Shown here piece by piece: positions 18,578-62,895 of a stretch of DNA of 64,000 bases; positions within the stretch are counted from its first letter, which is position 1, and each line of letters starts with the position of its first letter. The notes below the pieces were generated by a model. It was not told where the DNA came from. It did no database searches and worked only from the letters and a program-made list of their open reading frames with translations. A program made the position numbers and the translations under genes. This DNA is from a virus: IMG/VR virus record IMGVR_UViG_3300042731_005759, positions 64,001 through 128,000 of that record; one strand, 5' to 3'.

Positions 18578-20410
18578 ATGGCAAAGAAAATATCATACGC
18601 TAAAAGAGATTTCGCAGGGTTAAGACAAGATCTTGTCAACCTAACCAATGACTATTATCCTGATTTAATAAAAAACACAAATGACGCATCGATCTATTCA
18701 GTATTATTAGATCTAAACGCTGCCATCGGTGATAACCTACATTATCACATTGATAGAGTGTGGCAAGAAACGATGTTAGACTTCGCACAACAAAGAAGAT
18801 CGTTATTCCACATCGCTAAGACTTATGGTATAAGATTACCAGGTAATAGACCTTCGGTTGCTTTATGTGACTTTTCAATAAACGTTCCTGTAAGAGGTGA
18901 TAAAGAAGATGAAAGATATCTTGGTATACTCAAGGCGGGGGCACAAGTTTCAGGTGGTGGACAAACATTTGAAACAGTAGAAGATACAGATTTTTCAAAT
19001 CCATTCAATAACAAGGGAGAACCAAATAGGTTAAAGATTCCAAACTTCGATTCAAACAATAAGTTAATTTCTTATACCATTACAAAGAGAGAGGCAGTAG
19101 TAAATGGTGTGTCAAGGATTTTTAGAAGGGTAATAACAAAACAAGATCAAAAACCATTTCTTAAATTGTTTTTACCTGAAAAGAATGTTTTAGGGGTAGT
19201 TTCTATAATCCATAAGGAAGGTTCTAACTTGACATCAAATCCAAGTTCATCTGAATTTAGTTCAGAACAGAATAGGTGGTACGAGGTAAAAAGTCTTATG
19301 GAGGACAAAATATTTTTACCAGATAAAACTTCCGCTTCTGACAAGGATAATTTCACCGCGGGTGAATACAAACGAGTAACAAATAAATTTATCACGGAGT
19401 ATACTCCTGAAGGATTTATGTCAGTCACTTTTGGTTCGGGTAGTGTAGATCCTTTAGATAATTTAGATTCGTATAACTCAGGTAACTTGAAAGTTAACTT
19501 AGGTACATACTTAAACAATTTATCTTTAGGGTCAGTACCTAAATCAAACAATACTATTTTCATCAAATATAGAATTGGTGGAGGTAAGGATAGTAATTTA
19601 GGTGTTAATGTTATTACGTCAGTAAATAATGTTGAGTTTAATGTAAATGGACCACTATCAAATGTTAATAATCAAGTGGTACAATCATTAAACGTAACAA
19701 ATGTTACTCCCGCTGTTGGAGGTGCGGATCAACCAACAGTAGAAGAAATAAGAAACTTGGTAGGTTACAACTTTGCAGCACAAAACAGGGCGGTAACCTT
19801 AAATGATTATAAATCTTTGATTGAAACGATGCCATCTACATACGGTGCACCAGCCAAAGTAAATGTGATGGAAGAAGATAACAAGATTAAAATCAAACTT
19901 TTATCATATGATGATTCAGGTAATCTCACAGACACAGTATCTAATACATTAAAGAACAATATATTAAGGTACCTTGCAAACTACAGAATGATTAACGATT
20001 ATTTAGATATCGTTAGTGGTGAGGTTGTGGACCTCGGTCTTGAGATTGATTTAGTTATTGATAAAAATATTACACAATCCGAAGTATTAAAAGAGGTCAT
20101 AACAAGTGCTACTGAGTTTATGAGTATCGAGGGTAGAAAAATGGGTGACCCATTATTCCTCGGAGAACTACAGAAAAATGTTTCTGATATTACAGGAATA
20201 GTAAATGTAGTAAACTTAAAAGTCTATGGTAAAACAGGGGGAGAGTACTCAACTTCAGAAGTATCACAAGACTATGTAGACGATACCACAAAAGAAATAC
20301 AACAATCTGATTCAACGATTTACATGAAAAGTAATCAAATCTTCCAAATCAGATTTCCTAACAAAGACATAAAAGTTAGAGTAAAAACGTTAGGTTCCAC
20401 TACATTTTAA
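18578..20410 (+). CDS. Baseplate wedge subunit, T4 gp6 / baseplate J-like
   Basis: RDFAGLRQDL, YHIDRVWQETMLDFAQQRRSL, YRIGGG, AVGGADQPTVEEIR and AQNRAVTLNDY motifs; follows gp25. Confidence 0.9.
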   Translation: MAKKISYAKRDFAGLRQDLVNLTNDYYPDLIKNTNDASIYSVLLDLNAAIGDNLHYHIDRVWQETMLDFAQQRRSLFHIAKTYGIRLPGNRPSVALCDFSINVPVRGDKEDERYLGILKAGAQVSGGGQTFETVEDTDFSNPFNNKGEPNRLKIPNFDSNNKLISYTITKREAVVNGVSRIFRRVITKQDQKPFLKLFLPEKNVLGVVSIIHKEGSNLTSNPSSSEFSSEQNRWYEVKSLMEDKIFLPDKTSASDKDNFTAGEYKRVTNKFITEYTPEGFMSVTFGSGSVDPLDNLDSYNSGNLKVNLGTYLNNLSLGSVPKSNNTIFIKYRIGGGKDSNLGVNVITSVNNVEFNVNGPLSNVNNQVVQSLNVTNVTPAVGGADQPTVEEIRNLVGYNFAAQNRAVTLNDYKSLIETMPSTYGAPAKVNVMEEDNKIKIKLLSYDDSGNLTDTVSNTLKNNILRYLANYRMINDYLDIVSGEVVDLGLEIDLVIDKNITQSEVLKEVITSATEFMSIEGRKMGDPLFLGELQKNVSDITGIVNVVNLKVYGKTGGEYSTSEVSQDYVDDTTKEIQQSDSTIYMKSNQIFQIRFPNKDIKVRVKTLGSTTF

Positions 20411-32100: not shown

Positions 32101-35100
32101 ACCTATTCTTTCATATAAAATATTCACAGATACTGATGGTATAAAGAAAATAAGTGTCACACCTATTAAATACGACGTACCATTATATACTGACAATACT
32201 TGTAGAACTGAGGCGGATATTGATTGTTTAGATGGAGATACTTTTGATTTCTATTTTGATACATTTTACTTAACAGGAACAACCTGTTGTAATCCACAGG
32301 TAGATGTGTATGGACCGAATAAATTTTATACCCTACCTGAGGATGAAGATGAATGTATCCTCATGGAGGATGTATACTTCAAGGTTTCAGGAATTACTTT
32401 CGGAAACGAAGATATTGTTGATGATGGAGATCCATGTACAACTTGTCCACCATATAATACAACATGGCCAACAAACATTTTTATCAATTGTGTTGGTGGA
32501 TATAACGAATCAATTTCAGGTAATACAACATTACAAGAAGACCAAACAGTTGAATGGGTATCGGGTTGTACTTTCGTTATAAGAAATGTAAGAGAAAATG
32601 ACGTAATAGACATAACTATCACTGACGCGGCTAACTGCGATCAAAAAGTTAGAATTGATGGATTACAACAAAAATTTGAGTGGGATCCTATTGATGGTGA
32701 CGATGTTACCGAATCACGTAGTCATTTTTTCCAATACACAATCGATTCTTATTTAGAAGGTGAGGATTACCCAACTCACGATCCATCAGTAAGTCAAAGT
32801 GGTATAACATTCTGTGATAATTTTTCAGGATATACCCTACACCCAACGGTACAATATAGACCTACTTTTGATTATGGTCTAAAACAAAATACTAAGGTCA
32901 TTAAAATTAACAATGGTGTTATTATAGATGACGAAAATACTTGGGTAGATGTACAGAATTATTTCCAAGATAATACATTAGAGTTAATCGATGTTGAAGA
33001 TGTTCAAATAGGTGATAGATTACTTTCAGGACAATATCTTAACTGTCCTTTCAGTTCAAGTGATTATACAAACGCAGTACTGAGTGGTTATTCATTTAGT
33101 TACAATTACTTAACCGTTGAAGTGGACAATAAAGATTGTTTAGGATCAACAAAAGTAAATGTGATTAATGAAAGATTTAGAGTTTTACCAAATTCTAAAT
33201 TAAGGGTAATGACACAGGTGGGAGATCATTGGGAGTTTACAGAAAAATATCCTGAAGAATTAATAGTGAGACCACCTGAACCAACAGAACCTTGTTGTAA
33301 TTACGGTGTAGACTATTATAAAAAAGGTGATTTACTAATAAACGAATTAGGTTTTCCAATCGAGGTAACCTCATTAGATTTAGATTATTGTCAAAGAGAT
33401 TTATTTTATCATCTGAATGTTAGTGCTGTTTACAGACAACCATCAAATACATTAAGTATTGTTCCTGATAATCCTTTTGGTGTTTCCACAGAATGTTGTA
33501 CGGAAGTTATATTATTTAATGGTGATGTTGACGATCAAATATTGGTAGAATATGATGAACAAATATTTGAAAATTTAGATCTCAGTTCACAACAATATTA
33601 TCAAGACCAATTAGATTGTGTTGATGAGCCAACAATCGAAGATTTAGAAAGACCCGAATATACGGAAAACTGTAATGATCTAAATGCGTTTATTGGTATA
33701 CATTATACTGATGGTAACCAAATATTAATTGAGTATGATGAATCGTACAATATTGGTAATATAGTTCAAGTATCAGAGATTAACTCACAACTAACAGAAT
33801 ACCTCTCACCAGGTATGGATTGTTATGAACTAACAGGAATAGCATACTCTGAAAATATTACACATCAAATACTTTCTATATGTACTGATTTGATAACACC
33901 AACAGCGTCTCCCGCACCAACAGGAACACCAACTCCAACACCAACAATTACTGCTAGCCCAACACCTTCACCATCACCTTCAGAAACACCTGAACCTACC
34001 CCTTCACCAAGTCCTAGTGAGACTCCATCACCAACATCAACGCAAACTCCTACACCATCACCTTCACCAAGTGAGACCCCTGAACCTACTCCTTCACCAA
34101 GTCCAAGTGAAACTGCAGAACCTACACCAACACCTTCAGAAACACCTGAACCGACTGCAAGTGAGACGCCACAACCAACAAGTAGTAGTACGCCAGAACC
34201 AACACCAAGTACTACACCTGATCCAACACCATCACCTTCACCTAGTCCATCACCATCACCGAGTCCTTCTCCAAGCCCAAGTCCATCACCAAGTGCAACG
34301 GCAAACTGTGACTTCGATGTTGATATAGACATTGCGACTCCAACCCCCACAAATAGTAGTACACCAGAACCAACACCTAGTCCATCCCCTTCACCTAGCC
34401 CATCTCCATCACCAAGTCCTACAGTTACTGCAAACTGTGACTTTGACGTTGATGTAGATATTGCTACTCCTACACCAACACCATCTCCATCACCTAGTCC
34501 TTCTCCGTCGCCAAGTCCTTCTCCGAGTCCAAGTGCAACGGCAAACTGTGATTTTGACATTGATATAGATATTGCAACACCAACACCTACACCAACAAAT
34601 AGTAGTACACCTGAACCTACCCCTAATCCTACATCAAGTCCTACACCATCACCTAGCCCTTCACCTTCACCATCACCAACACCTAACTGTGATTTCGATG
34701 TTGATATAGACATTGCAACTCCGACTCCGACTCCTTCACCATCACCGAGTCCTTCTCCGAGTCCGAGTCCAAGTGCAACTGAAAACCCAACACAAACACC
34801 AACACCATCCCCAAGTCCTACGCCAAACTGTGACTTTGACGTTGATGTAGATATTGCAACTCCTACGCCAACACCTAGCCCTTCCCCTTCACCTAGTCCA
34901 TCACCATCACCATCACCAAGTACTACACCTGAATCAACACCAACGCCTTCACCTAGCCCATCCCCTTCACCAAGTCCAAGTCCAAGTGCAACGGCAAACT
35001 GTGACTTTGATATTGATATAGACATTGCAACTCCGACCCCAACACCTACAAATAGTAGTACACCTGAACCTACTCCTAATCCTACACCATCACCAACTGT

Positions 35101-36631
35101 AAGTGTAACTCCTGACGCAACACCTAATCCAACGTCTACACCACCTGCAACGGAAAATCCAACACCTACTCCTAGTAGTACTGCAATTCCGACTCCAACA
35201 CCATCACCTAGTCCGTCACCGTCACCATCTCCGAGTCCTACACCAAACTGTGATTTTGATATTGATATAGATATTGCAACACCTACACCGACACCAAGCC
35301 CATCACCTTCACCTAGTCCATCACCATCCCCTTCACCTAGCCCAAGTGTAACACCTGATCCTACATCAAGTCCAACACCATCACCTAGTCCATCACCATC
35401 ACCAAGTCCTACACCTAATTGCGACTTTGATGTTGATGTAGATATTGCGACTCCTACGCCAACACCAACAAATAGTAGTACACCTGAACCTACCCCTTCA
35501 CCAACACCAAGCAGTACTCCAAACCCTACAGCGAGTCCTACTCCAAGTAGTACTCCTAACCCTACGGCAAGTCCTACCCCAAGTCCTACCCCTAATCCTA
35601 CAGCGAGTCCTACACCATCACCAAGTGTAACTCCTGATCCAACTCCTACGCCTTCACCTAGTCCATCACCAAGTCCTTCACCAAGTCCAACACCTAATTG
35701 TGACTTTGACGTTGATGTAGATATTGCTACCCCTACACCAACACCATCTCCATCACCTAGTCCATCACCATCACCGAGTCCTACCCCAAGTAGTACTCCA
35801 AACCCTACAGCGAGTCCTACTCCAAGTAGTACTCCTAACCCTACTGCAAGTCCAACACCTTCACCTAGCCCATCACCAAGTCCAAGTGCAACACCAAACC
35901 CTACACCATCACCTAGCCCATCTCCATCGCCAAGTCCAACACCAAACTGTGATTTCGATGTTGATATAGATATTGCAACTCCTACTCCTACACCATCACC
36001 ATCTCCGTCGCCTTCACCTAGCCCATCGCCAAGTCCTAGTCCATCACCATCGCCAAGTAGTACACCAAATCCAACTCCTACACCAACACCATCTCCATCG
36101 CCATCACCGTCTCCGTCACCATCACCTAGTCCAAGTCCGACTCCAAGTCCGACCCCTAGTCCTACTGCAGTAGATTGTCCACCTAGTTGTGGTACACAGA
36201 TCTATAAAAACTCATATGTACCAACAGGTAGTACTTCATCTGTTAGTACAATTAAGGATCTCGGTGGATACTGTACTGAAAATAGAGTGGATGGTGATAT
36301 AGTATCTACAAGTGGTGCAGAATGGGTATATAATACAAATAATTGTGTTGTATATGTTAGATCTTATAGTGGAGGATCAAGTAGTACGTGTGTTGGTGAG
36401 TATGTAACACCTACAGGAACTGAGGTTAGTTCATTTGTACACACTGAAGGTACGTTAACACCAACAGGAAGTAATAAATTATACGATACAGGAATCAGAT
36501 ATATTGACTCTAATAATAACGCAATTGTGATTGTGACTGAATGGAATTCATCACTAATGGATTTAGTTAGAGTTTGGGTATTATGTGATTGTAGTTTTGA
36601 AGGTGAAGTAATAGAAAATTTTGAAGGATGA
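29174..36631 (+). CDS. Giant baseplate wedge protein (gp7/P2 gpI-like domain) with degenerate HINT domain and ~750-aa Pro/Ser/Thr stalk
   Basis: [14 protein letters not shown] and [29 protein letters not shown] (gpI/gp7 motif); HINT-like segment at 32876-33553; PS/PT repeats at 33896-36166. Confidence 0.75.
33896..36166 (+). repeat. Pro-Ser/Pro-Thr low-complexity coding repeat with 10 NCDFD[VI]D[VI]DIATP modules
   Basis: Read directly from DNA and translation. Confidence 0.95.
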
Positions 36632-36671: not shown

Positions 36672-39600
36672 ATGAGTCAGGTAAGATATTTTGATGTAAC
36701 AATTAGTTCGGGAACCTCACATAGTACATATATTATATACTATGATCAGGTTAACGCGTCTAATATTGCCACAAGAGTATCAACTAATTTACCTGCAACA
36801 GGAGTTACATATTCAGATTTAACTTCACTTAATGGTGTTAGAGTTCAAGTACCTTACACTGCAACAACAATATTATTGTATAATAACTCATGTGTTGTTG
36901 ATGACGAAATTATCTTACCAACACCAATTCCCACATCTACACCTACACCCACTCCTTCCCCAAGCCCATCACCTAGTCCATCACCTTCACCTAGTCCATC
37001 ACCAAGCCCTACACCATCCCCAAGCCCAAGCCCATCCCCAAGTCCAACACCTAATTGTGACTTTGATGTAGACATAGATATTGCAACTCCCACACCAACC
37101 CCATCACCTTCACCTAGCCCATCACCTAGTCCGTCCCCATCACCAACACCAAACCCTACACCAAATCCAACACCATCCCCAAGCCCAAGCCCATCACCTT
37201 CACCTAGTCCATCACCAAGTCCTACACCGACATTTAGTCCAACTCCAAGTGCAACACCAAACCCTACTGCGAGTCCAACACCATCTCCTAGCCCGAGTCC
37301 ATCACCAAGTCCAACACCGTCACCAACACCTAATTGTGACTTCGATGTGGACGTAGAAATGAATTTAGCACCTACAGGGTTTACACCATTTGCTTTTCAA
37401 CAGTTTGAAAATACGGCAACAGGTACAACGATAGCGACACTTTCAGCAAGTGATCCTGATTCGGGTGATACACATACATTTAGTTTAGTGTCAGGTTCAG
37501 GTAGTACAGATAACGCATCATTTACTTTATCAAGTGCAGGTGTTCTTAAAAATGCAGTAGTATTCAACTATGAAACAAAATCAAGTTATTCGATAAGAGT
37601 AAGAGTTACAGATCAAGGTGGACTAAGTTTTGAAGGTACAAGAACAGTATCAGTTCGTAACGTAAATGAAACTCCGTATGGATTGACATTAAGCAATAAT
37701 ACACAGAATGAGAATACCGCAACAGGTACAACCATCGGAACGTTCTCAGGTTTAGATGTTGATAGTGGTGAAACATTTACATATACACTTTCGGGAAGTG
37801 GTAATGATAACGCATCATTTACTTTATCAAGTGCGGGAGTTCTTAAAAACGCGATAGTATTCAATTACGAAGTTAAAAATTCATATAGTATCGAAGTAAC
37901 GGTTACTGATAGTGGTAATAACACCTATACTGATACATTTACAATTTCAGTCCTTGATGTTAACGAAACACCTACTAATATTACTTTATCAAGTTCATCT
38001 ATAGATGAGAATGTACCAACAGGGACTACAATTGGAACATTTAGCTCATCAGACCCTGATAGTGGAAATACCTTTACATATAGTTTAGTAAGTGGAACAG
38101 GATCATCAGGAAATGGTAGTTTTTATATCGATGGTACAAGTCTGAAGAGTAATGTTGTATTTGACTATGAAACACAATCATCTTACTCTATAAGGGTTAG
38201 ATCGACAGATCAAGGAGGTCTTTACGTAGAAAAAATATTAACAATATCGATTACAGACATATCAGTATCAGGTACTGCAACAGTCACAAACTTAAATTGT
38301 TATAATGATTCCTCAGGAACAATTGAAGTCACTTCTCAGTCAGGGGGTGACTCACCATACACATATTCAATTAATGGTATATCGTATCAATCATCAACGT
38401 CATTTACAGGTTTGGGGGCAGGAACTTATACAGTATATATTAAAGATGATAATGGTGAAATAGGTACGTTATCAAAAACAATAACACAACCACCCGTACT
38501 TTCAGTGACTGATTCACACACAGATCCAACATGTTATGGAGGAAGTGATGGTGAAATTGTCTTTAGTGTTGCTGGTGGTACAGGTGAAAAAACATATACA
38601 ATAAATGGGGATGTAACAACAGATACAACTCATACAGGTTTGACTGCGGGTACATATACTTTCATTGCGACAGACGAAAATGGATGTACTGATAGTAGAT
38701 CGGTTACTTTGAGTGTAACGCAAGTGTCAGTTAATTTTGACGGAAGTGATGTTAGTTGTAATGGTGATTCAGATGGTAGTATTAGGGTTTTCTGTCCAAC
38801 AGGTGGTAGTGGATCGGGATACGAAGTCAAAATAGGGTCCAATGCATATCAAAACTTACCAACTGGTTGTGGTTTTGGTGATGGAGTAAATTACACGGCA
38901 TTAACTGCAGGTACATACACTATCACAGTAAAAGATGGGGATGGTTGTGAAAGACAATATACAAGAGTAATAACAGAACCTACTACTTTATCAGCATCTG
39001 CAAGTGGTACTCTACCAACCTGTAGTAATAGTTCAGATGGTACAATAACAGTAACCGCCAGTGGTGGTACATCACCATATGAGTATGATTTAGCGAATAC
39101 AGGTTACCAAACCTCAAACGTATTCAGTAACCTAAGTTCAGGTTCATATACAGGTAGGGTAAGAGATAATAATGGGTGTATTGGGGCGTTTAGTGTTGAT
39201 ATCACAAGAACTCAAGTGTCTGCAACAGTAACACAAACAAATGTTACTTGTAATGGTGATGATGACGGAACAATAACTGTTACAAGTCCATCAGGTGGTA
39301 CAGGTACAGGATACGAAGTAAAATTAAATAGTAATGGTACTTATGTAAATCTTGAGACAGAAACATATAGTAATTTGGCACCAGGAACATACACAGTTTA
39401 TGTTAAGGATAGTAATGATTGTGAAAGAACATATAGTATAACAATAACTGAAAATGCGGTGGTGACCGCAAGTGTTACATCAACAGACCCAACATGTTTC
39501 GGTAATACTGATGGTAGTATAACAGTAACGGGATCAGGTGGAACAGGATCATATACTTACAGTATTGGAAGTGGTTACCAAGCATCAAATACTTTTACCA

Positions 39601-41903
39601 ATTTAGGAAATGGTGCATATAATATATCAGTTCAAGATAGTAATGGTTGTATAGGTACAACCACAAGAATCCTATTGAAACAAGAAGTTTCCGCAACAGT
39701 AACACAATCTAATGTTACTTGTAATGGAGGATCAAATGGATCCATTACGGTATCCTCACCTACAGGTGGAAATGGTGTCCCATATAGTGTAAAATTAAAT
39801 AGTGGTTCTTATACAACAACATTCCCTAAAACTTACTCGAGTTTAAGTGCGGGGACGAACACTATAACCGTTAGAGATACTGACGGATGTACAAAAGAAT
39901 ATAGTATTACTATTACAGAACCAACTGCGGTTAATGTTACATCAAGTTCTGTGACACATCCAACATGTAATTACAGTAGTGATGGTGAAATAACAGTAAG
40001 TGCTACGGGTGGAACAGGCACTAAACAATATTCTATTAACGGTCTTTTATATCAGTCTTCAGGGACATTTACAGGATTAAGTGTTGGATCTCATACATTA
40101 TTTGCAAGAGACGAAAACAATTGTGTTGATACGGTATCGGTGACACTAAGTAAATCTCAGGTTACGGCAACCGTAACTCACACAAATGCAAGTTGTAATC
40201 TTGCAGATGGTGGTGGTTCGGGTACAATCACAGTATCCTCACCTACAGGTGGAAATGGAGGCACATACCAATCTAAATTGAATAGTGGGTCTTATACAAA
40301 TATAGGTACGTCAAAAACATATAGTAATGTGTCCGCAGGGACACACACAATTACCGTAAAAGATGGTAGTGGGTGTACAACATCATATTCTGTGACGATA
40401 ACACAACCAAACGCACTTACAATAGGGAGAACCATGGTAAACCCAACCTGTAGTAATAGTTCAGATGGATCAATAACATGGACAGTTGGGGGAGGAACGT
40501 CACCGTACTCATATACATTAAATGGTGATGTAACTGAAACCCTATCACATACAGGATTAACAACAGGTAGTTACACTTTGGAAGTAACAGATGATAACGG
40601 TTGTACAAAATCACGATTAGTTACGTTGAGTAAATCAGCGGTAACCGCATCATATAGTGTCAATAACCCTCTTTGTAATGGTGAATCAAATGGATCTGTA
40701 GAAATCACATCAATTACAGGAGGTAATGGTGGAACCTACCAATATCAATGGGATGGTGGAACATGGACAAACTTCTCAGGTTCCGCAATAATAGGTTTTC
40801 AATCTGCGGGAACATATACATTAAAAGTGAGAGACAGTCAACAATGTACAACAACATATTCTGTGAACTTAGGTCAACCATCAGCCCTTAATTTAAGTCT
40901 ATCACCAACAGGTCCAACGTGTTGGGATGGTAGTGACGGAGAAATTACTGTTACTGGTACAGGTGGAACTTCACCATACACTTATAAAATCGGTTCAGGT
41001 AATTACCAAATCTCAAATACATTTACTGGTTTAACTGACGGATCATACATAGTTACAATAAGAGATGCGAATAGTTGTACTAATTCGGCAAGTACTACGG
41101 TATCTACATCAGCACCATCGGCAACATTTACAACAACGGATGTTTCTTGTAATGGTGGTTCTAATGGTTTAATAAATGTTGCAAATCCAACAGGTGGTAG
41201 TGGATCGGGATATTACCATAGACTTAATAATGGATTATGGGTATTAACTTTCCCTTACAATTATGGTGCTTTATCCGCGGGAACATACACAATCGATATA
41301 AAGGATGGTGATTCATGTGAAAAGTCTTACAGTGTCACCGTGTCTCAACCTACAGCGGGTACCGCATCTATTTTAAGTTACGTATCTGGTAGTAATGGTT
41401 CTATAACTGTTACATCCTCAGGAGGTACATGGAATAAAACTTATAGATTATATGAAGATACTGCGTCACCTTATACAAATAGTGGGGGTGTACTAACAGC
41501 CACAATCACAGGTGTTACCTCATCAAATCCATCACAAACATTCTCCAACCTCTCCGAAGGTTACTATTACGTTGTTATAACTGACGCTAATGGTTGTACC
41601 GCAACATCGGCAGTACAAAGTACTTTCGCAGGTTCAGTAGGAGATCTTAAAATTAGTAGGTGTGGTGATAGTGTAATATACTATGCAAATAGTCAATTTG
41701 GTTGTAGTGAAGGGAACGATCTATTGATGCCATTTGGATTTAATATTGGAGATATAGTTCAATTTGCGGTAGGGACGGATTGCCCACACGGTACTACTTA
41801 TTGTGGTGAAATAACAGCAACTGATCAAAGTAATGAATCAACAGCAATATTAACAAGTGAATTTACACAGGATGATTGTAACTCACCTGACTGTAATGAA
41901 TAA
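36672..41903 (+). CDS. Adhesin-like fibre protein: shared N-domain, PS/PT linker with 2 NCDFD motifs, 3 cadherin repeats, ~14 SprB repeats, Cys-rich C-domain
   Basis: Cadherin: [21 protein letters not shown]...[20 protein letters not shown]...VNETP. SprB: TCxGxxDGxITVxxxGGTxPYxY...GLxAGTYTxxVxDxNGC. Confidence 0.85.
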
Positions 41904-41966
41904 ACAAATAAAAACTTTTTTGAAAAGTATGATATTTATTAATAAAGATTTTAAAACTAAAAAATT

Positions 41967-42509
41967 ATGGCTTATCAAGTAACATTTACATTAAATGCGT
42001 TGTACACAGGTACAACGGAAGCGGACAACTTTACAATAGTTGGGAAACATTCAAACGGTTCCCCCGCAGATACAACAATAGCAACAGGGGTCGCTAAGGC
42101 GGATTTAATCGCGGGAGTAACCTACCAAGTTGCAGATACAATAACAGGAGGTACAGTAACCTCAACAGGGACATGTACTAATTCTGTGAATTGGGTTGGA
42201 CAAGGAGGTGCGGCACCAACGGCAACACCACAAGCAACACTAGGACCAACGGCAACACCATCGGAAATTTCATATTACCAATTTAGTTACTGTGATACTG
42301 GTGATCAACCACAAGGAGTTACAACTGTTGACGTATCATCAGATGAGTTAACGGCAGCAGGATTTAATGCATTACCATCACCAGGTAACCCAACTCTTGA
42401 ATTCCAAGGGTTAGGTGGTTGTTATGAATACAGACAGGTAGAAGCAAGTAGTAGTGATGGTCGTCTCATTTTGACCGTGAACGAATGTACTTGTGATGAG
42501 TCGGCATAA
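41967..42509 (+). CDS. Small modular appendage protein (shared N-domain, PT linker, Cys-rich domain)
   Basis: ATGVAKADLIAGV N-domain motif; [16 protein letters not shown] linker; YYQFSYC...CYEY...CTC. Confidence 0.75.
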   Translation: MAYQVTFTLNALYTGTTEADNFTIVGKHSNGSPADTTIATGVAKADLIAGVTYQVADTITGGTVTSTGTCTNSVNWVGQGGAAPTATPQATLGPTATPSEISYYQFSYCDTGDQPQGVTTVDVSSDELTAAGFNALPSPGNPTLEFQGLGGCYEYRQVEASSSDGRLILTVNECTCDESA

Positions 42510-42540
42510 TTCAAAAACTAAGTCATAAAGTTTATATTAA

Positions 42541-42565
42541 AAAACCCTCACTCGAGGGTTTTTTT
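42541..42565 (+). terminator. Intrinsic terminator (possibly bidirectional)
   Basis: AAAACCCTC-ACTC-GAGGGTTTT followed by further Ts, with an A-run upstream. Confidence 0.8.
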
Positions 42566-42593
42566 ATTTCTATTATAAAAGTATTTATAACAT

Positions 42594-43889
42594 ATGGGAT
42601 TAGTAGTTAGGTTATATGACATAGTTTCACCCAATAAATTCAAGTTGAGTATTGGGTTATCACCGTATGGTAATTTTGATCAAATAGTGGGATCAGAAGC
42701 CAATGGATATTTTCTACCGTCAACTACGGGAACTACAGACACCACCCATAGAAATTATAGGACAGATCCTATATGTATAACAGATAATAACCCCGAGATT
42801 ACGGGTTCAACATGTTCTGTATATGAATCTTTGACATTTGATACGAGATATTTTCTGAAATTAGAGGATACATCAAATCTTGTAAATCAATGTGATACTA
42901 ATCCATGTATTGATAATACGGAAAAGAGACATATAATTGAAAGTATATATATCAGTGATAGTAAGACGTTTGATTGTTATGACAAGATTAAATTTGATGT
43001 GGATTATGTATGTTTAACTCCCACACCTACTCCAAGTGCAACACCTAATCCAACCCCTAATCCTACTACATTACCGAATCCAACCCCCAACCCAACACCT
43101 GAACCTACCGCAAATCCAACACCTAATCCTACCGCAGATCCAACACCACAACCAACACCTCAGTGTTTACGTTACATAATAACAGTCACTGACCAAAAGG
43201 TTGCATTAGTAGTAACGTATACGGATTGTGCGACTGGTTTAACAGATACGGAAACTATAAATCCATCAACATCTGAAACCCTTTGTTCACTAACTCAACC
43301 AGTGAGATCATCAGGTACCCTACAATACTACATTGGTGAGGGTACAGATAACTGTGCAAATGCACCTACTCCGAATCCAACACCTAATCCTACCGCTAAC
43401 CCAACACCTAATCCAACTGCGGAACCTACACCTGAACCAACACCTGAACCTACAGGTTTATGTATAGAAGTTTCAGATTTTGTGGCGAGAACTGACTTAT
43501 CAACAACTTTTACTTGGGAAGACTGTGATGGGAATAGTTATAGTATGAATATACCTGCAGGAGACGCGGCACCACCTTCATCGGGGCCATGTGTTAGACA
43601 AGGTACTGTATCATGGGTACCATCAGGCGGAAATGCGAGGGTAGACTTAGCGATAAGTCCTTCAGGACTTTGTGATGGTGGTGAACCAGTTACAACACAG
43701 TGTTATAATTACACATTATCAGTACCTAGTATGGGTGAAACTACGAGTACTTTCTCATATACCGCATGTAATGGAGACGAGAGGACATGGACAGGATTGT
43801 CTGGTGATAATACATCAGTATGTGCACAAGATGGTACGGTAAGTGTAACATCGGGACCTGGAACATACTATAAAGGAAGTGCATGTTAA
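42594..43889 (+). CDS. Modular appendage protein with PTPN linkers and three Cys-rich domains
   Basis: Translation; TATTTATA motif 4 nt before the ATG. Confidence 0.75.
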   Translation: MGLVVRLYDIVSPNKFKLSIGLSPYGNFDQIVGSEANGYFLPSTTGTTDTTHRNYRTDPICITDNNPEITGSTCSVYESLTFDTRYFLKLEDTSNLVNQCDTNPCIDNTEKRHIIESIYISDSKTFDCYDKIKFDVDYVCLTPTPTPSATPNPTPNPTTLPNPTPNPTPEPTANPTPNPTADPTPQPTPQCLRYIITVTDQKVALVVTYTDCATGLTDTETINPSTSETLCSLTQPVRSSGTLQYYIGEGTDNCANAPTPNPTPNPTANPTPNPTAEPTPEPTPEPTGLCIEVSDFVARTDLSTTFTWEDCDGNSYSMNIPAGDAAPPSSGPCVRQGTVSWVPSGGNARVDLAISPSGLCDGGEPVTTQCYNYTLSVPSMGETTSTFSYTACNGDERTWTGLSGDNTSVCAQDGTVSVTSGPGTYYKGSAC

Positions 43890-43900
43890 TACAATAAAAA

Positions 43901-45181
43901 ATGGCAAGAAAGGTTAGGATAGATTTAAGTTTAGACAACACTCACAGTTTGAGTGATTTTCCTGTTGACTTATATAGTGGAACAACTAGTGGGACTACAA
44001 CTGAGTTAGTTTTTGCGAATATTACAGAGGGACCTGTAGTATTAGAAGTGGAAGACAGTGTTTTAAATATTGTCAATGGAGAGCACCCATTTTTCTATGT
44101 TAGGTTTTCTTCTGAAGGATGTCATGATGAAATTGTTAAAGTTCAAGTACCGAGAGTAGATTGTACTTTATGTGTTTCATTTATACCATATGGGTTTACA
44201 CCAACACCAAATCCAACGGAGACCCCATTACCTACTCCTGAACCTACTCCTAATCCTACTAATGAACCAACACCTAATCCTACTAATGAACCTACACCTA
44301 ATCCCACTCCTAATCCTACTAATGAACCAACACCTAATCCTACCGCAGATCCAACACCTGAACCTACACCTAATCCTACCGCAGACCCAACTCCTAATCC
44401 AACTGCAGAACCAACACCTAATCCTACACCGAATCCAACTGCGGAACCTACACCTGAACCAACAGAAAATATTATAGTTGCGGGTGTAAGATTGACTATT
44501 CCTTATACAAATTCGGAAGACGCATGTGCTGGTAGTAATAAAAACCAAAGTAATCACGCATATATCCTTGAAGGATCAAGTATATTCACATTAGTCAACG
44601 GGTATTTACTAATCGACGGAAGTCAACTTACGATGGTAGGATCGGTGGATTATGATTTATATTATGGTGATGAAACAATTTCAACAAACTCATTAGAACA
44701 GAGTATAGGTACAGTAAATGGTGCGTCACCATCGGGATGGTATTTAGTTGATTCGACTTCAACTACAAATATACCTTTAAGTTCGAAAGTATTAGCAACA
44801 GTAAATGACACGTATAATCCAACAACAATAAGTTTTAGTCTTTGTGTAACCCCTGAACCAACACCCGAAGAAACACCAGCTGAAGAAAGTGGTTTAGTTA
44901 AAATTATAGATTGTGATCTGTTGGATGAAAATGGTCAAGCACCACCAGGGGCGAGTTACTATTTGATAGACCCAACTGAAACTTGTATATCAGGGCAATT
45001 ATCACTGACATCAACCTTATTATCTGCAGGGGATATTATATATTATCGTGTAGGTGATCAAACTTGTTCGGGATCCATTATGTGTGCTCAAGTACAGAAT
45101 GGAACCTTTACAGGTACACCAGATGCAACAAGGAGTGGTGAAAACATATTCCCATCTTGTAGTGAATGTTACATACCATAA
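43901..45181 (+). CDS. Modular appendage protein with PTPN/PTNE linker and Cys-rich C-domain
   Basis: Translation; C-domain ends CSEC. Confidence 0.75.
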   Translation: MARKVRIDLSLDNTHSLSDFPVDLYSGTTSGTTTELVFANITEGPVVLEVEDSVLNIVNGEHPFFYVRFSSEGCHDEIVKVQVPRVDCTLCVSFIPYGFTPTPNPTETPLPTPEPTPNPTNEPTPNPTNEPTPNPTPNPTNEPTPNPTADPTPEPTPNPTADPTPNPTAEPTPNPTPNPTAEPTPEPTENIIVAGVRLTIPYTNSEDACAGSNKNQSNHAYILEGSSIFTLVNGYLLIDGSQLTMVGSVDYDLYYGDETISTNSLEQSIGTVNGASPSGWYLVDSTSTTNIPLSSKVLATVNDTYNPTTISFSLCVTPEPTPEETPAEESGLVKIIDCDLLDENGQAPPGASYYLIDPTETCISGQLSLTSTLLSAGDIIYYRVGDQTCSGSIMCAQVQNGTFTGTPDATRSGENIFPSCSECYIP

Positions 45182-45230
45182 AAAATAAAAGTAATTGGAT
45201 ATAAAGAGTATTTATAATATAAAAGATTAA

Positions 45231-55729: not shown

Positions 55730-57136
55730 ATGGCACTTAGAAACGTAACATTAACAGGAACTACAATCGGGAGCGGAATCTCGAACGTAAGTATTTACCA
55801 CAGTTTTGTGGATCCGAGCAATTTAATACAGGCGGGAGTAACCAGTACACAATTGGCTAATGGTTACACCTTCCAAGATCAAGATTATAGATACACATAT
55901 TATGTTGTATCAGATTCTGCGTGTGGAACAAACACGAGAGTTGTTCTACCAAACGCACCAATAAGTACATTTACTGAAGGTCAAATCGTGGATATCAGTG
56001 ACAATGTTATAACACACGACATCACGGCAATAGGTAATACGATAACAGGTACTCAAAACGATTGGATGATTTTTACAGAATTTGGATCAACAAGCAACGG
56101 ACATATAGTTAGATCAGATGATAATGGACAGACTTGGATTAAAGAATCAAGTTCTTCTGCACCTGATAGAGCGATGGCATTTGTTAACAACAGTACCAAA
56201 TCAATCCAAGGTGGTGTATCTTATCCTGTATCCGTTGGTAGTTGGGCTTATAATGCTTATGGGTATTTTACATCAAATGGTGGTTCTAATTGGTCCCAAC
56301 AAAATTTAATGACTCGAGGTACTGTTAATAGTAGTGCATACAACTCAGGTTATGTTGGGTATTCTTTTCAAGATGTTCAGACAAGAACCACTGCTGAAGG
56401 GACTCAAAGAGATGGTCACAACAAATTTGTTTCCTATTTAGGGGCACAGTGGATGTCCACGACGGGACAGTATTTTTCAACAGACTATTCATACAGTCAG
56501 AAAAGTCATATTGATGAGTGGTTAAATAGTTCTAGCCCTGTAGCTACTTGGCAGAATCGTGATTCCAATGTTAGTGCATCAGGAGTTAGTCAATCTTTGA
56601 GAGGGTATGGGTGTAGACTAACTGATGAAACTGGTCTAGTGAAGATATTTGCAGGTGCATCAAGTGGTTATATGTTAAAAATAACGGTGGTTAATACCTT
56701 CACTGCGGTATCATCTGGTGAGTCAGGTACAAACCAATTAATAACTGCGGTTGGTCATAATCAAGAGGAACTCAACGAACATGGTCAGGATGGTTCTGAA
56801 ACTACATGGTTGGCAGCAATAGAAGACCCAAATCAAGCAGCTAACACACAGGAGTTTATTATGAGTACTGATGATGGTGATAATTGGGTTTCTTATACAG
56901 GAACTAATATGGACACGGATTATATATACGATATCAAATACATAAAAGGTAGATGGTATGCCGTTGGTAAGAAAGGAACCGAAGGTAGGATTTGTTCCAC
57001 TGCGGACTTAAACGATCCTTGGGAACAAATGGGTACAACAAAACCTTGTAAAACAATAGGTGTTGGTAGAGATATTGAAAACACAAAAATAATAATTGGT
57101 TGTGAAGAAGGATATATAGTACAGAATCAAGTTTAA
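55730..57136 (+). CDS. Shared N-domain plus BNR/Asp-box beta-propeller protein
   Basis: Asp-boxes RSDDNGQTW, TSNGGSNW and STDDGDNW; N-terminal IYHSFVDPSNLI...AGVTSTQL...CGTN. Confidence 0.7.
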   Translation: MALRNVTLTGTTIGSGISNVSIYHSFVDPSNLIQAGVTSTQLANGYTFQDQDYRYTYYVVSDSACGTNTRVVLPNAPISTFTEGQIVDISDNVITHDITAIGNTITGTQNDWMIFTEFGSTSNGHIVRSDDNGQTWIKESSSSAPDRAMAFVNNSTKSIQGGVSYPVSVGSWAYNAYGYFTSNGGSNWSQQNLMTRGTVNSSAYNSGYVGYSFQDVQTRTTAEGTQRDGHNKFVSYLGAQWMSTTGQYFSTDYSYSQKSHIDEWLNSSSPVATWQNRDSNVSASGVSQSLRGYGCRLTDETGLVKIFAGASSGYMLKITVVNTFTAVSSGESGTNQLITAVGHNQEELNEHGQDGSETTWLAAIEDPNQAANTQEFIMSTDDGDNWVSYTGTNMDTDYIYDIKYIKGRWYAVGKKGTEGRICSTADLNDPWEQMGTTKPCKTIGVGRDIENTKIIIGCEEGYIVQNQV

Positions 57137-61173: not shown

Positions 61174-62027
61174 TGAATTTAAAGGAAGAATCAGAGAAAA
61201 TTAGAAAGGTTTTAGATAGGAGACGAAAAGAACTCGACCTATCATTTATAGAGGAAGATCATTTATACTATATGAGAGGTAAAGAAGGTATAATTAGGTC
61301 TAATTACCCATCTGTTTCTAAAATTATCAAGAAATTTTACGAAGAGTTTGACGCTGAAGGTATCTCCTTAAGAATGGCGAAAGGTAACATACAAAGACAA
61401 AAGGAATTATTACAAGAATGGAAAGATAAAGGTACTTATGCGACTAATCAGGGTAGTAGAGTACACTATATACTTGAAAAGGTACTCATTGAACAGTATG
61501 GTGACTATAAAAACGTTAGGGAACCGATTTATCAATGTGATGATGAACAAATACAAAGAAGTGACAACATGATAAATGCGGGTAAAGACTTCTTGAAACT
61601 GATGCACGAAAGAAATGCAGTATTATTAGACACCGAGATCGTATTAGGTGATCCCGAGTTAGGTTATGTGGGTCAACCCGATAAAGTATGGTTAGTAGAA
61701 AATAAACAAGGTACTGATTACGGTATTTTGATAACAGATTGGAAAACAAATAAACCCGAAAACTTCAAAAAACAGAGATACACTAAAAAGATGTATTCTC
61801 CATTTGATAATATAGATAGTACTGCACTTGGACACTACTATTTACAACTACCATTTTATGGTAAACTACTTCTAAAAATGTTAGAAGGTACTGAATATGG
61901 TGATAAAAAATTATTAGGGAACATTGTAGTTCTTGTAAAAGAAGATGGTTCCTTTGAAGAGTATAAAGTCCCTGTTGAGGTAACTCAAAAGATACTTCTC
62001 ATGGACATGGATAAAATTTTAAAATAA
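61173..62027 (+). CDS. PD-(D/E)XK exonuclease (RecB/Cas4-like)
   Basis: PSVS, GSRVH, E...GQPD...ITDWKT and QL..Y motifs. Confidence 0.8.
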   Translation: MNLKEESEKIRKVLDRRRKELDLSFIEEDHLYYMRGKEGIIRSNYPSVSKIIKKFYEEFDAEGISLRMAKGNIQRQKELLQEWKDKGTYATNQGSRVHYILEKVLIEQYGDYKNVREPIYQCDDEQIQRSDNMINAGKDFLKLMHERNAVLLDTEIVLGDPELGYVGQPDKVWLVENKQGTDYGILITDWKTNKPENFKKQRYTKKMYSPFDNIDSTALGHYYLQLPFYGKLLLKMLEGTEYGDKKLLGNIVVLVKEDGSFEEYKVPVEVTQKILLMDMDKILK

Positions 62028-62470
62028 TGATTAGATACGAAGGTAAAAAAATAGGTTTCACGGCAGGAAATTTTGATCTGTTGCATCCTGGTTATATATA
62101 CACCTTTGAAACTGCGAAAGAACACTGTGATTGGTTTATTGTTTTTTTACAGAGAGACCCATCACTACATAGAAAAAGTAAATATAAACCAGTGATACCA
62201 GTCTATGAAAGATATAAAACTTTAATGTCGATAAAATATATTGATGAGGTTTTCATGTATCAAACTGAAGAAGAATTATTAGATCTAATTAAATTCTTTA
62301 AACCAGATGTTAGAATTTTAGGTGAAGACTACATAGGTAAAGATTTCACAGGTAAAGACTTACCGATTGAAGTGATTTATACAACTAGATCACACGATTG
62401 GTCAACAACGAAAATAAAAGATTTAATCACAAGACAAACGATTGAACAAAACCCAAATATTTTAAAATGA
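62027..62470 (+). CDS. Cytidylyltransferase-like protein (TagD/RfaE family), copy 1
   Basis: GFTAGNFDLLHPGY, ER...SIKYIDEV, LGEDY and SHDWSTTKIK motifs. Confidence 0.85.
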   Translation: MIRYEGKKIGFTAGNFDLLHPGYIYTFETAKEHCDWFIVFLQRDPSLHRKSKYKPVIPVYERYKTLMSIKYIDEVFMYQTEEELLDLIKFFKPDVRILGEDYIGKDFTGKDLPIEVIYTTRSHDWSTTKIKDLITRQTIEQNPNILK

Positions 62471-62895
62471 GTAAACCAAAAATAGGTGTTGTTGCGGGTA
62501 ATTTTGACATAATTCATCCAGGTTATATTGAGATGTTTAGGGAGTGTAGTCAACAATGCGAGGAATTTCATGTCTTATTACACACAGATCCTTCTATTGA
62601 AAGACCACATAAATTAAAACCAATATTGAGTGTTGAGGAAAGATTTAAAGTACTAATGTCTATTAGATACATAACTAATATACATATATATACATTTGAA
62701 AAGGAATTAGTAAAATTATTAGAGACAGTCAAACCTGATGTTAGATTTTTAGGTGATGATTATAGGGAGAAGAAGTTTACTGGTGATCATCTCGATATAC
62801 CTATCTATTATTTGAATAGAGATCATGGATGGAGTACAACTAAATTTAAAAAACTTATACACGATGAGTATAGAAGACAAGTGGAATCTGATTGA
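62467..62895 (+). CDS. Cytidylyltransferase-like protein (TagD/RfaE family), copy 2
   Basis: VAGNFDIIHPGY, ER...SIRYI, LGDDY and DHGWSTTKFK motifs. Confidence 0.85.
   Translation: MSKPKIGVVAGNFDIIHPGYIEMFRECSQQCEEFHVLLHTDPSIERPHKLKPILSVEERFKVLMSIRYITNIHIYTFEKELVKLLETVKPDVRFLGDDYREKKFTGDHLDIPIYYLNRDHGWSTTKFKKLIHDEYRRQVESD

Follow-up and report, generated by a model that had tools for sequence, protein, structure and literature searches.

Gene array at the locus

The stretch of DNA analysed here (the window) comprises 64,000 nucleotides (nt), bases 64,001-128,000 of the single 176,087-bp contig of the IMG/VR virus record IMGVR_UViG_3300042731_005759. Our subject is a domain of about 80 amino acids (aa) at the N-termini of several proteins that are encoded in an array of neighbouring genes within it. 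The source contig has a G+C content of about 34%. The PHROG matches in the window are those of a phage and include ribonucleotide reductase, a DnaB-like helicase, a primase, a UvsX-like recombinase and an SbcD-like nuclease, together with a gp6-type baseplate wedge subunit (18578-20410; match to PHROG 219/6). Given the gp6-type wedge and the genes for replication and nucleotide metabolism, the source phage, a marine one, is assigned from its gene content to the T4-like, myovirus-type phages. Downstream of the wedge gene lie large unannotated genes, followed by an array of about ten genes on the + strand. The genes of this block are given below by start position, with the letters that denote the types of array gene.

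29174, + strand, product of 2485 aa
36672, + strand, product of 1743 aa, type A
41967, + strand, product of 180 aa, type D
42594, + strand, product of 431 aa, type I
43901, + strand, product of 426 aa, type F
45231, + strand, product of 433 aa, type B
46604, + strand, product of 652 aa, type G
48572, + strand, product of 991 aa, type H
51561, + strand, product of 1373 aa, type E
55730, + strand, product of 468 aa, type C
57155, + strand, product of 759 aa, type J

From gene 36672 to gene 55730 the products have a common layout, in which a compact N-terminal domain (N-domain) is followed by a Cys and a short strand, then by a linker rich in Pro, Thr and Ser, and finally by C-terminal parts that are dissimilar from protein to protein. 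An initial annotation of the window had proposed that these N-termini share a universal attachment module, dockerin-like and possibly an incomplete immunoglobulin (Ig) sandwich that is completed by a Cys-led strand (NCDFD) and locked to it by a disulfide.

A shared domain at the N-termini of array proteins

We compared the first 75-150 residues of each array gene, using one alignment per orthologue group. The orthologues came from syntenic arrays of related metagenomic phages (L001, L003/4, L005 and L008/9, and later L010-L018 and L022-L029). Five N-domains fall, with differing security, into one family:

36672..36917, + strand: type A N-domain of the 1743-aa cadherin/SprB protein, aa 1-82; secure member (family hidden Markov model (HMM), E 9e-29)
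45231..45494, + strand: type B N-domain of the 433-aa protein, aa 1-88; secure member (family HMM, E 3.3e-28)
41967..42200, + strand: type D N-domain of the 180-aa protein, aa 1-78; probable remote member (hhalign, 75%)
55730..55954, + strand: type C N-domain of the 468-aa protein, aa 1-75; probable remote member (hhalign, 64.5% against type B)
51561..51806, + strand: type E N-domain of the 1373-aa beta-helix protein, aa 1-82; possible member, weakly supported

The peptides quoted in the initial annotation were all found at the starts that it gave, and the close alignment it reported between the proteins of 36672 and 45231 reflects a homologous N-domain of about 80 aa (BLASTP, 42% identity over 67 aa, E 5e-14; hhalign, 98.9%, E 1e-17). 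Both domains were scored with a family HMM of 140 sequences, and in type A a single Cys closes the domain, before a short strand and then a Pro/Ser/Thr linker. The annotation had fitted 55730, 41967 and 51561 to the same pattern; membership is probable for the first two, and 51561 is tied to the family by a weak link only.

Profile-profile comparison of types A-J gave 45 pairs, and the best six all lay within the set of A, B, C, D and E: A-B (98.9%), B-C (64.5%), C-E (33.5%), C-D (32.7%), A-C (14%) and B-D (11%). These six pairs are colinear over most of the domain, and any pair involving types F-J reached at most 2.6%. Column-shuffled controls (60 each) stayed below the observed scores, with z values of 5.1-7.4 (6.8 for type C against type B), and unrelated real N-domains of the array score like column shuffles. 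In single-sequence comparisons, pairs other than A-B and B-C were insignificant.

Type C matches type B by BLASTP at E 5e-4 over 27 residues, and the hhalign match between them (E 6e-5) extends over nearly the full length; against the family profile type C reaches 28%, below 95%. For type D, the addition of divergent D orthologues from L017 and L027-L029 brought the hhalign score with the family profile of 140 sequences from 47% up to 75% (E 2.5e-5, 61 columns), and such a gain with profile depth is expected of true homology. The alignment brings into register the terminal Cys and a central block of the form A-T-G-x-T ... L ... G-V-x-V. The type D N-domain is found in every relative examined, the most distant included, and a divergent 339-aa protein of L017 behaves as an intermediate, aligning over its full length with the family (41%), with type D (23-38%) and also with type C.

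The sole profile link of type E is to 55730 (33.5%), with 1.3% against the family profile, and its AlphaFold2 (AF2) model has a predicted local distance difference test (pLDDT) score of 48.4, which makes it unusable for fold comparison. In a language-model look-up, types E and B share what seem to be the same two viral clusters as top matches (scores 0.86-0.89; a lead only); the clusters were judged the same by size and length, one of 72 aa with 64 members and one of 74 aa with 89 members. Relatives sought for the C and E profiles were close ones only (74-100% identity), too similar for the profiles to be deepened. HMMs built within the genome (A+B, A+B+C and A+B+C+D) and run over 469 open reading frames (ORFs) found no further members and placed C or D next after the training sequences, with E 0.079 for 55730 and 0.37 for 41967, values at which plain HMMER cannot settle types C, D and E. 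On these comparisons, types A and B would be old paralogues of one domain family to which D and C probably, and E perhaps, also belong.

The remaining four N-domains are of other kinds, contrary to the initial annotation, which had placed the domain across the array:

42594..43013, + strand: type I N-domain of the 431-aa protein, about 140 aa; non-member, likewise a conserved N-terminus with a variable remainder
43901..44191, + strand: type F N-domain of the 426-aa protein, about 97 aa; non-member, with a Cys-led strand at its end, before the Pro/Thr linker
46604..46897, + strand: type G N-domain of the 652-aa protein, about 98 aa; non-member
48572..48847, + strand: type H N-domain of the 991-aa protein; canonical fibronectin type III (fn3), non-member by sequence

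The type H N-terminus matches PF00041 (E 1.1e-8, 35.6 bits against a cut-off of 25) and stands in the same position as the family domain of its neighbours. At its other end, the protein of 48572 has a domain common to PHROG 677/9158.

The domain family beyond this phage

A profile of ten A/B N-domains, with type B as the reference, was searched against 1.84 billion representative proteins and matched 309 clusters at E ≤1e-3, of which 179 were at ≤1e-10. Among the best 150 of the 309 matches, on which our position counts rest, the domain begins at residue 1 in about 142, and the proteins range in length from 54 to 1718 aa. Five positions (M1, Y21, G51, P57 and C76) are invariant in a 67-sequence alignment. 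The Cys that the initial annotation had noted at the end of the domain is a feature of the family at large, and 128 of 129 members have a Cys within residues 63-92. In 57 of the 129, the sequence continues with a stretch that is at least 50% Pro, Thr and Ser. Payloads recognized by Pfam in 93 full-length members were SprB repeats (23), cadherin (4), VWA (2) and one each of Laminin_G_3, fn3 and beta-propeller; most of the 93 are without any Pfam domain.

The domain itself has no match in Pfam or PHROGs, and a profile search of PDB sequences with it gave nothing below E 0.08. In the Atlas clusters closest to it, all members with a recorded taxon are viral, and no relative of the domain emerged when 185,579 prokaryote genomes were scanned with a pattern; a larger alignment of the family contained no segment of sufficient conservation for such a scan. 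As far as sequence searches can tell, the family is sizeable, unannotated and virus-restricted, with at least 309 clusters at 50% identity. A literature search found no paper on this array or this domain.

Conservation of the domain and exchange of payloads

Among the related phages, the N-domains are in most comparisons much better conserved than what follows them. The type D N-domain is 63-90% identical to the window copy, against about 20-27% over the remainder in eight of nine orthologues (75% in L003); the type D tail is replaced in most relatives. For type B the corresponding values are 39-88% for the N-domain and 20-51% for the rest. Types F, G and I mostly behave likewise, with the N-domain above the rest, and L003 provides exceptions for A, F and H. 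In the window and its relatives, proteins of 174, 192, 196, 727, 1373 and 1470-1610 aa are headed by the type E N-domain. For one of these, the 192-aa protein P0168 of a relative, the gene call opens with some 65 residues that are similar to the cupredoxin-like C-terminus of 48572-type proteins and are in frame with the type E N-domain, either as a true fusion or through read-through of a short intergenic gap.

N-domains of different paralogues are at most 42% identical to one another and those of orthologues of one type are 63-96% identical, which suggests separate, paralogue-specific docking sites. In this respect, and given that five of nine array N-termini belong to the family (two of them securely), the module is not the universal one that had been proposed.

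The payloads are mutually unrelated, as the initial annotation had it. The protein of 36672 carries three cadherin and twelve SprB repeats, and an orthologue of 51561 close to the window copy has a Pel9A-like beta-helix payload. The exchangeable payloads behind the domain are of adhesin type (SprB, cadherin, VWA, lectin-like and beta-helix). The host of the phage is probably a member of the Bacteroidota, to judge by the SprB repeats and the known distribution of this repeat.

The gene content and order of the array differ between relatives, with L010, L015 and L011 each having their own order. Types C, E and H are confined to the clade of the window, and in the most distant relatives nothing is kept of it but the gene of the giant protein, an A-type gene, a D-type gene and one other. 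The block always lies between the baseplate-side genes and the conserved gene of the 759-aa protein. Small genes without the linker architecture occur in mid-array in two relatives (L010:8097-8543, 148 aa; L017:15062-15385, 107 aa). In L006 (1946-3920), a gene encoding a SprB-like domain and linker is directly followed by a gene with the family domain; the counterparts of these two genes in L018 (10001-12178) form one ORF of 725 aa, with the family domain at residues 279-355.

Predicted fold

The AF2 model of type B (residues 1-80, from a ten-sequence alignment) has a pLDDT of 82.8 and is a compact, small beta-sandwich. It has strands at residues 2-7, 18-22, 52-57 and 63-67, short bridges at about 30-42 and a short helix of six residues at 45-50. 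The disordered tail at 72-80 is an artefact, since the modelled fragment stops at residue 80 and lacks the strand behind the Cys. Dockerins are Ca-binding and helical, with a duplicated F-hand of about 22 aa per helix unit. The modelled domain, made of beta strands and one short helix, does not have this architecture, and the dockerin-like character suggested for it does not extend to its fold; a Pfam scan to E 10 gave no dockerin, cohesin or pilin family among the matches listed, which above E of about 0.1 are a selection.

In a BFVD fold search, the best matches were uncharacterised proteins, several of them of Virus NIOZ-UU157 (template modelling (TM) score about 0.6, E 0.05). The top rows of an Atlas fold search were viral hypothetical proteins of 288 aa (TM 0.65-0.67) that are probably family members. 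The folds that come closest are sandwiches of the fn3, CBM6, DUF4352 and carboxypeptidase-regulatory-like kinds (TM about 0.5 or Z ≤3.8), so that on the model the fold class may at best be called an Ig/fn3-like sandwich, without a specific relative. Two more specific assignments were rejected. For fn3 membership of types A-E, there was no PF00041 match to E 10 among the matches listed; a likeness in fold may exist (Z 3.4-3.8). For the BACON domain, no Pfam BACON model appeared to E 10 among the matches listed, and BFVD gave a single row at rank 40 (E 2.0, TM 0.33).

Cys-led strands in stalks and linkers

The strands that the initial annotation had proposed as docking partners of the N-domain lie in three proteins of the block:

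34304..35974, + strand: ten NCDFD[VI]D[VI]D strands in the Pro/Ser/Thr stalk of the 2485-aa protein
37053..37361, + strand: two NCDFD strands in the type A linker
47066..47839, + strand: ten NCDFD-type strands in the linker of the 652-aa protein (0 to 10 copies among relatives)

The Cys-led strand is lineage-specific in its sequence, being NCDFDVD in the window, CLFDVD in L027 and L029, CVFDV in L028 and CEFDVD in L017. Within one genome the copies are near-identical, which suggests concerted evolution under functional constraint. A complex prediction for the type B N-domain (alignment of 67 rows) and a 41-aa segment of the 46604 protein that contains two NCDFD strands scored 0.30 against a mark of 0.32 and weighs neither way.

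The coding sequence of the stalk of 29174 coincides with a sharp rise in G+C at 34001-36000 (to 0.48, with a GC skew of -0.51). A 386-aa ORF on the - strand (33865-35025) overlies the same Pro/Ser/Thr-coding stalk and is almost certainly a by-product of low complexity.

The domain as a putative virion anchor

We suspect that the domain of about 80 aa is the conserved, virion-proximal anchor of modular tail-appendage proteins (receptor-binding proteins or adhesins), and we give this reading a probability of roughly 0.6. It is favoured because a conserved N-terminus joined to a swapped C-terminus inside the tail module is an established signature of receptor-binding proteins that are held on the particle by their N-terminus. 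The domain has the features of that functional class in its N-terminal position, in its conservation above a variable C-terminal binding part and in the location of its genes in a tail module. In phages with several receptor-binding proteins, a conserved N-terminal anchor combined with a swapped C-terminal binding part is the rule (PMC11414711, PMC10408124, PMC9700779), for instance in the Ackermannviridae tailspike complex (PMC11414711), the O-antigen tailspikes of Escherichia coli phages (PMC10408124) and the hyperbranched fibres of phiKp24 (PMC9700779). The attachment role put forward by the initial annotation gains indirect support from the position at residue 1, the conservation of the N-domain, the exchangeable payloads and the fixed placement of the block; binding to the virion is a further step that we infer.

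In this scenario, each protein would consist of the anchor domain, a single conserved Cys with a short strand, a flexible Pro/Thr linker and an exchangeable binding payload. The anchor would fasten its protein to a fixed site on the baseplate or the fibre apparatus, and the lone Cys may make this attachment covalent. Payloads could then be swapped by recombination within the linker or immediately behind it, with assembly left undisturbed, and each paralogue type is probably specialised for its own docking site.

Several points weigh against an anchor. The domain is internal in eight of the best 150 profile matches, and at least one of these, the 725-aa protein of L018, looks like a fusion of neighbouring array genes, which implies that a free N-terminus is not required. 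The profile scores of types C, D and E are below threshold, none reaching 95%, and the membership of E is essentially unproven. A Foldseek search of the type B model against the PDB gave no match below E 0.8, and thus no tie to a known anchor domain; the VIA fold search of 48,161 chains gave a best Z of 3.8 (YomS and fn3 domains), below the meaningful level and among generic fn3/Ig rows. Binding of the domain to the virion, its location there, an intermolecular bond of the Cys and the presence of the proteins in the virion are deductions from the gene sequences. Finally, small Ig-like domains on phage surfaces may also be weak glycan binders or spacers.

This last point leads to the alternative that the domain is a generic Ig-like spacer or a weakly glycan-binding decoration, as in Hoc, with no role in attachment to the particle. 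Ig-like domains occur on Hoc and on many phage structural proteins, the folds nearest to the model (fn3, CBM6, DUF4352 and carboxypeptidase-regulatory-like; TM about 0.5, Z ≤3.8) would suit such a function, and at the corresponding place in 48572 there is a true fn3 domain. From a spacer or glycan binder one would, however, expect the host-dependent variation that the payloads show, whereas the domain is better conserved than the binding payloads, keeps its Cys invariant and hardly ever departs from residue 1; we regard this alternative as unlikely. A module for self-association or cross-linking, by which copies of the same fibre dimerise or bundle through the lone Cys instead of docking on the baseplate, would account for that residue, since intermolecular disulfides typically involve a single Cys of this invariant kind. 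The idea also agrees with the usual state of phage fibres, which is oligomeric. The payloads here, however, are adhesin modules of the typical monomeric kind, strung like beads (SprB, cadherin and Pro/Thr linkers), and self-association leaves unexplained why each paralogue type stays constant across phages while the payloads change, so that we consider it rather improbable.

In the most specific alternative, the N-domain would be a sandwich left incomplete, docked through strand addition to the NCDFD strands of the 2485-, 1743- and 652-aa stalk proteins and locked there by a disulfide, in a bottle-brush resembling a cellulosome. Members A-D each carry one conserved, apparently unpaired Cys at the end of the domain, one Cys is likewise present in each of the 22 NCDFD units of the window, and every distant relative with the family has kept the Cys-led strand, at 4-15 copies per locus. 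Against this, the number of strands varies from 0 to 10 in 46604 orthologues without a matching change in the set of N-domain genes, and the type B model of residues 1-80 folds confidently alone. A position-specific scoring matrix (PSSM) of the 22 strands also fails to rank the terminal strands of the N-domains among its best matches, which reduces the likeness seen by eye between the domain end and NCDFD (a Cys, alternating hydrophobics, then a linker) to a loose pattern. Moreover, all carriers belong to one phage lineage, so that the co-occurrence counts as a single observation rather than several independent ones. We think it distinctly improbable that docking proceeds in this way. We are just as doubtful of the bond itself, in which the lone Cys of the N-domain would pair with the lone Cys of the C-x-F-D-V-D strands on the giant stalks to give a covalently pinned bottle-brush of different adhesins.

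Comparison with known systems

The anchors of tailspikes and fibres (the Ackermannviridae tailspike complex and Klebsiella and E. coli tailspike phages; PMC11414711, PMC10408124) are likewise N-terminal and more conserved than the receptor-binding C-terminus. They also resemble the array domain in the exchange of payloads between related phages, in the presence of several paralogous anchors per genome and in the location of the genes in a tail or baseplate block. The array domain differs from them in having no sequence or fold match in PHROG, Pfam or the PDB, in its much smaller size (about 80 aa) with a single invariant Cys, and in being followed by long Pro/Thr linkers and monomer-type adhesin repeats rather than by trimeric beta-helix spikes. 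The Klebsiella jumbo phage phiKp24 (PMC9700779) is similar in being a large myovirus with many different fibre genes in one block, whose fibres are presumably mounted on one another and on the baseplate. The fibres of phiKp24 are depolymerase-type trimers, whereas the array proteins are linker-rich and carry small Cys-rich or adhesin payloads.

The fn3 and Ig-like domains of phages are small beta-sandwiches of similar size, and fn3 rows lead the weak structural matches. However, the model of the family domain has fewer long strands plus a short helix, and a Z of ≤3.8 is insufficient for a fold assignment. Cohesin-dockerin and chaperone-usher donor-strand systems are comparable by analogy only, in that a common small module serves many payloads, the linkers are of Pro/Thr type and candidate docking elements recur on large scaffold proteins; unlike dockerin, the array domain is all-beta in its AF2 model. 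The principle of a conserved anchor with an exchangeable tip is already well known. What is new here is a virus-restricted family with an invariant lone Cys and several old paralogues per genome, which heads linker-rich, adhesin-type proteins and not trimeric spikes.

Other features of the locus

The motif TATTTAT is present within 70 nt upstream of the start codon in 8 of 18 genes checked, often a few bases from the ATG. The genes are 20470, 28257, 41967, 42594, 45231, 46604, 51561 and 55730, six of them array genes, and the placement of the motif is consistent with a T4-late-like promoter of structural genes. Between 41967 and 42594 (42510-42593), a G+C-rich hairpin, CCCTCACTCGAGGG, is followed by TTTTTTT and resembles an intrinsic terminator inside the array; a TATTTAT motif stands between this hairpin with its T run and gene 42594.

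Two neighbouring paralogous cytidylyltransferase-like genes are found at 62027-62895 and match PHROG 7878 (heptose phosphate adenylyltransferase type). In the relative L005, the pair adjoins a gene resembling cupin/mannose-6-phosphate isomerase.

A tblastn search with the type A N-domain and the flanking 759-aa protein against 50,697 phage records gave no match. The baseplate wedge protein matches distant phages only, at 25-28% identity (Flavobacterium phage immuto, a Microcystis phage and a 484-kb uncultured phage).

Implications

If disulfide docking is false, the array is a further example of the known rule of a conserved anchor with a swapped tip. If it is true, a disulfide-pinned bottle-brush would be a principle of virion assembly undescribed for any phage. 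The invariant Cys is a concrete candidate for how many different flexible adhesins are mounted on one particle. The domain is a marker of appendage genes in a widespread group of marine T4-like phages, and the payloads of this group suggest hosts among the Bacteroidota. Recognition of the domain gives the boundaries of exchangeable cassettes, and it offers a handle for spotting receptor-binding genes in metagenomic phage contigs.

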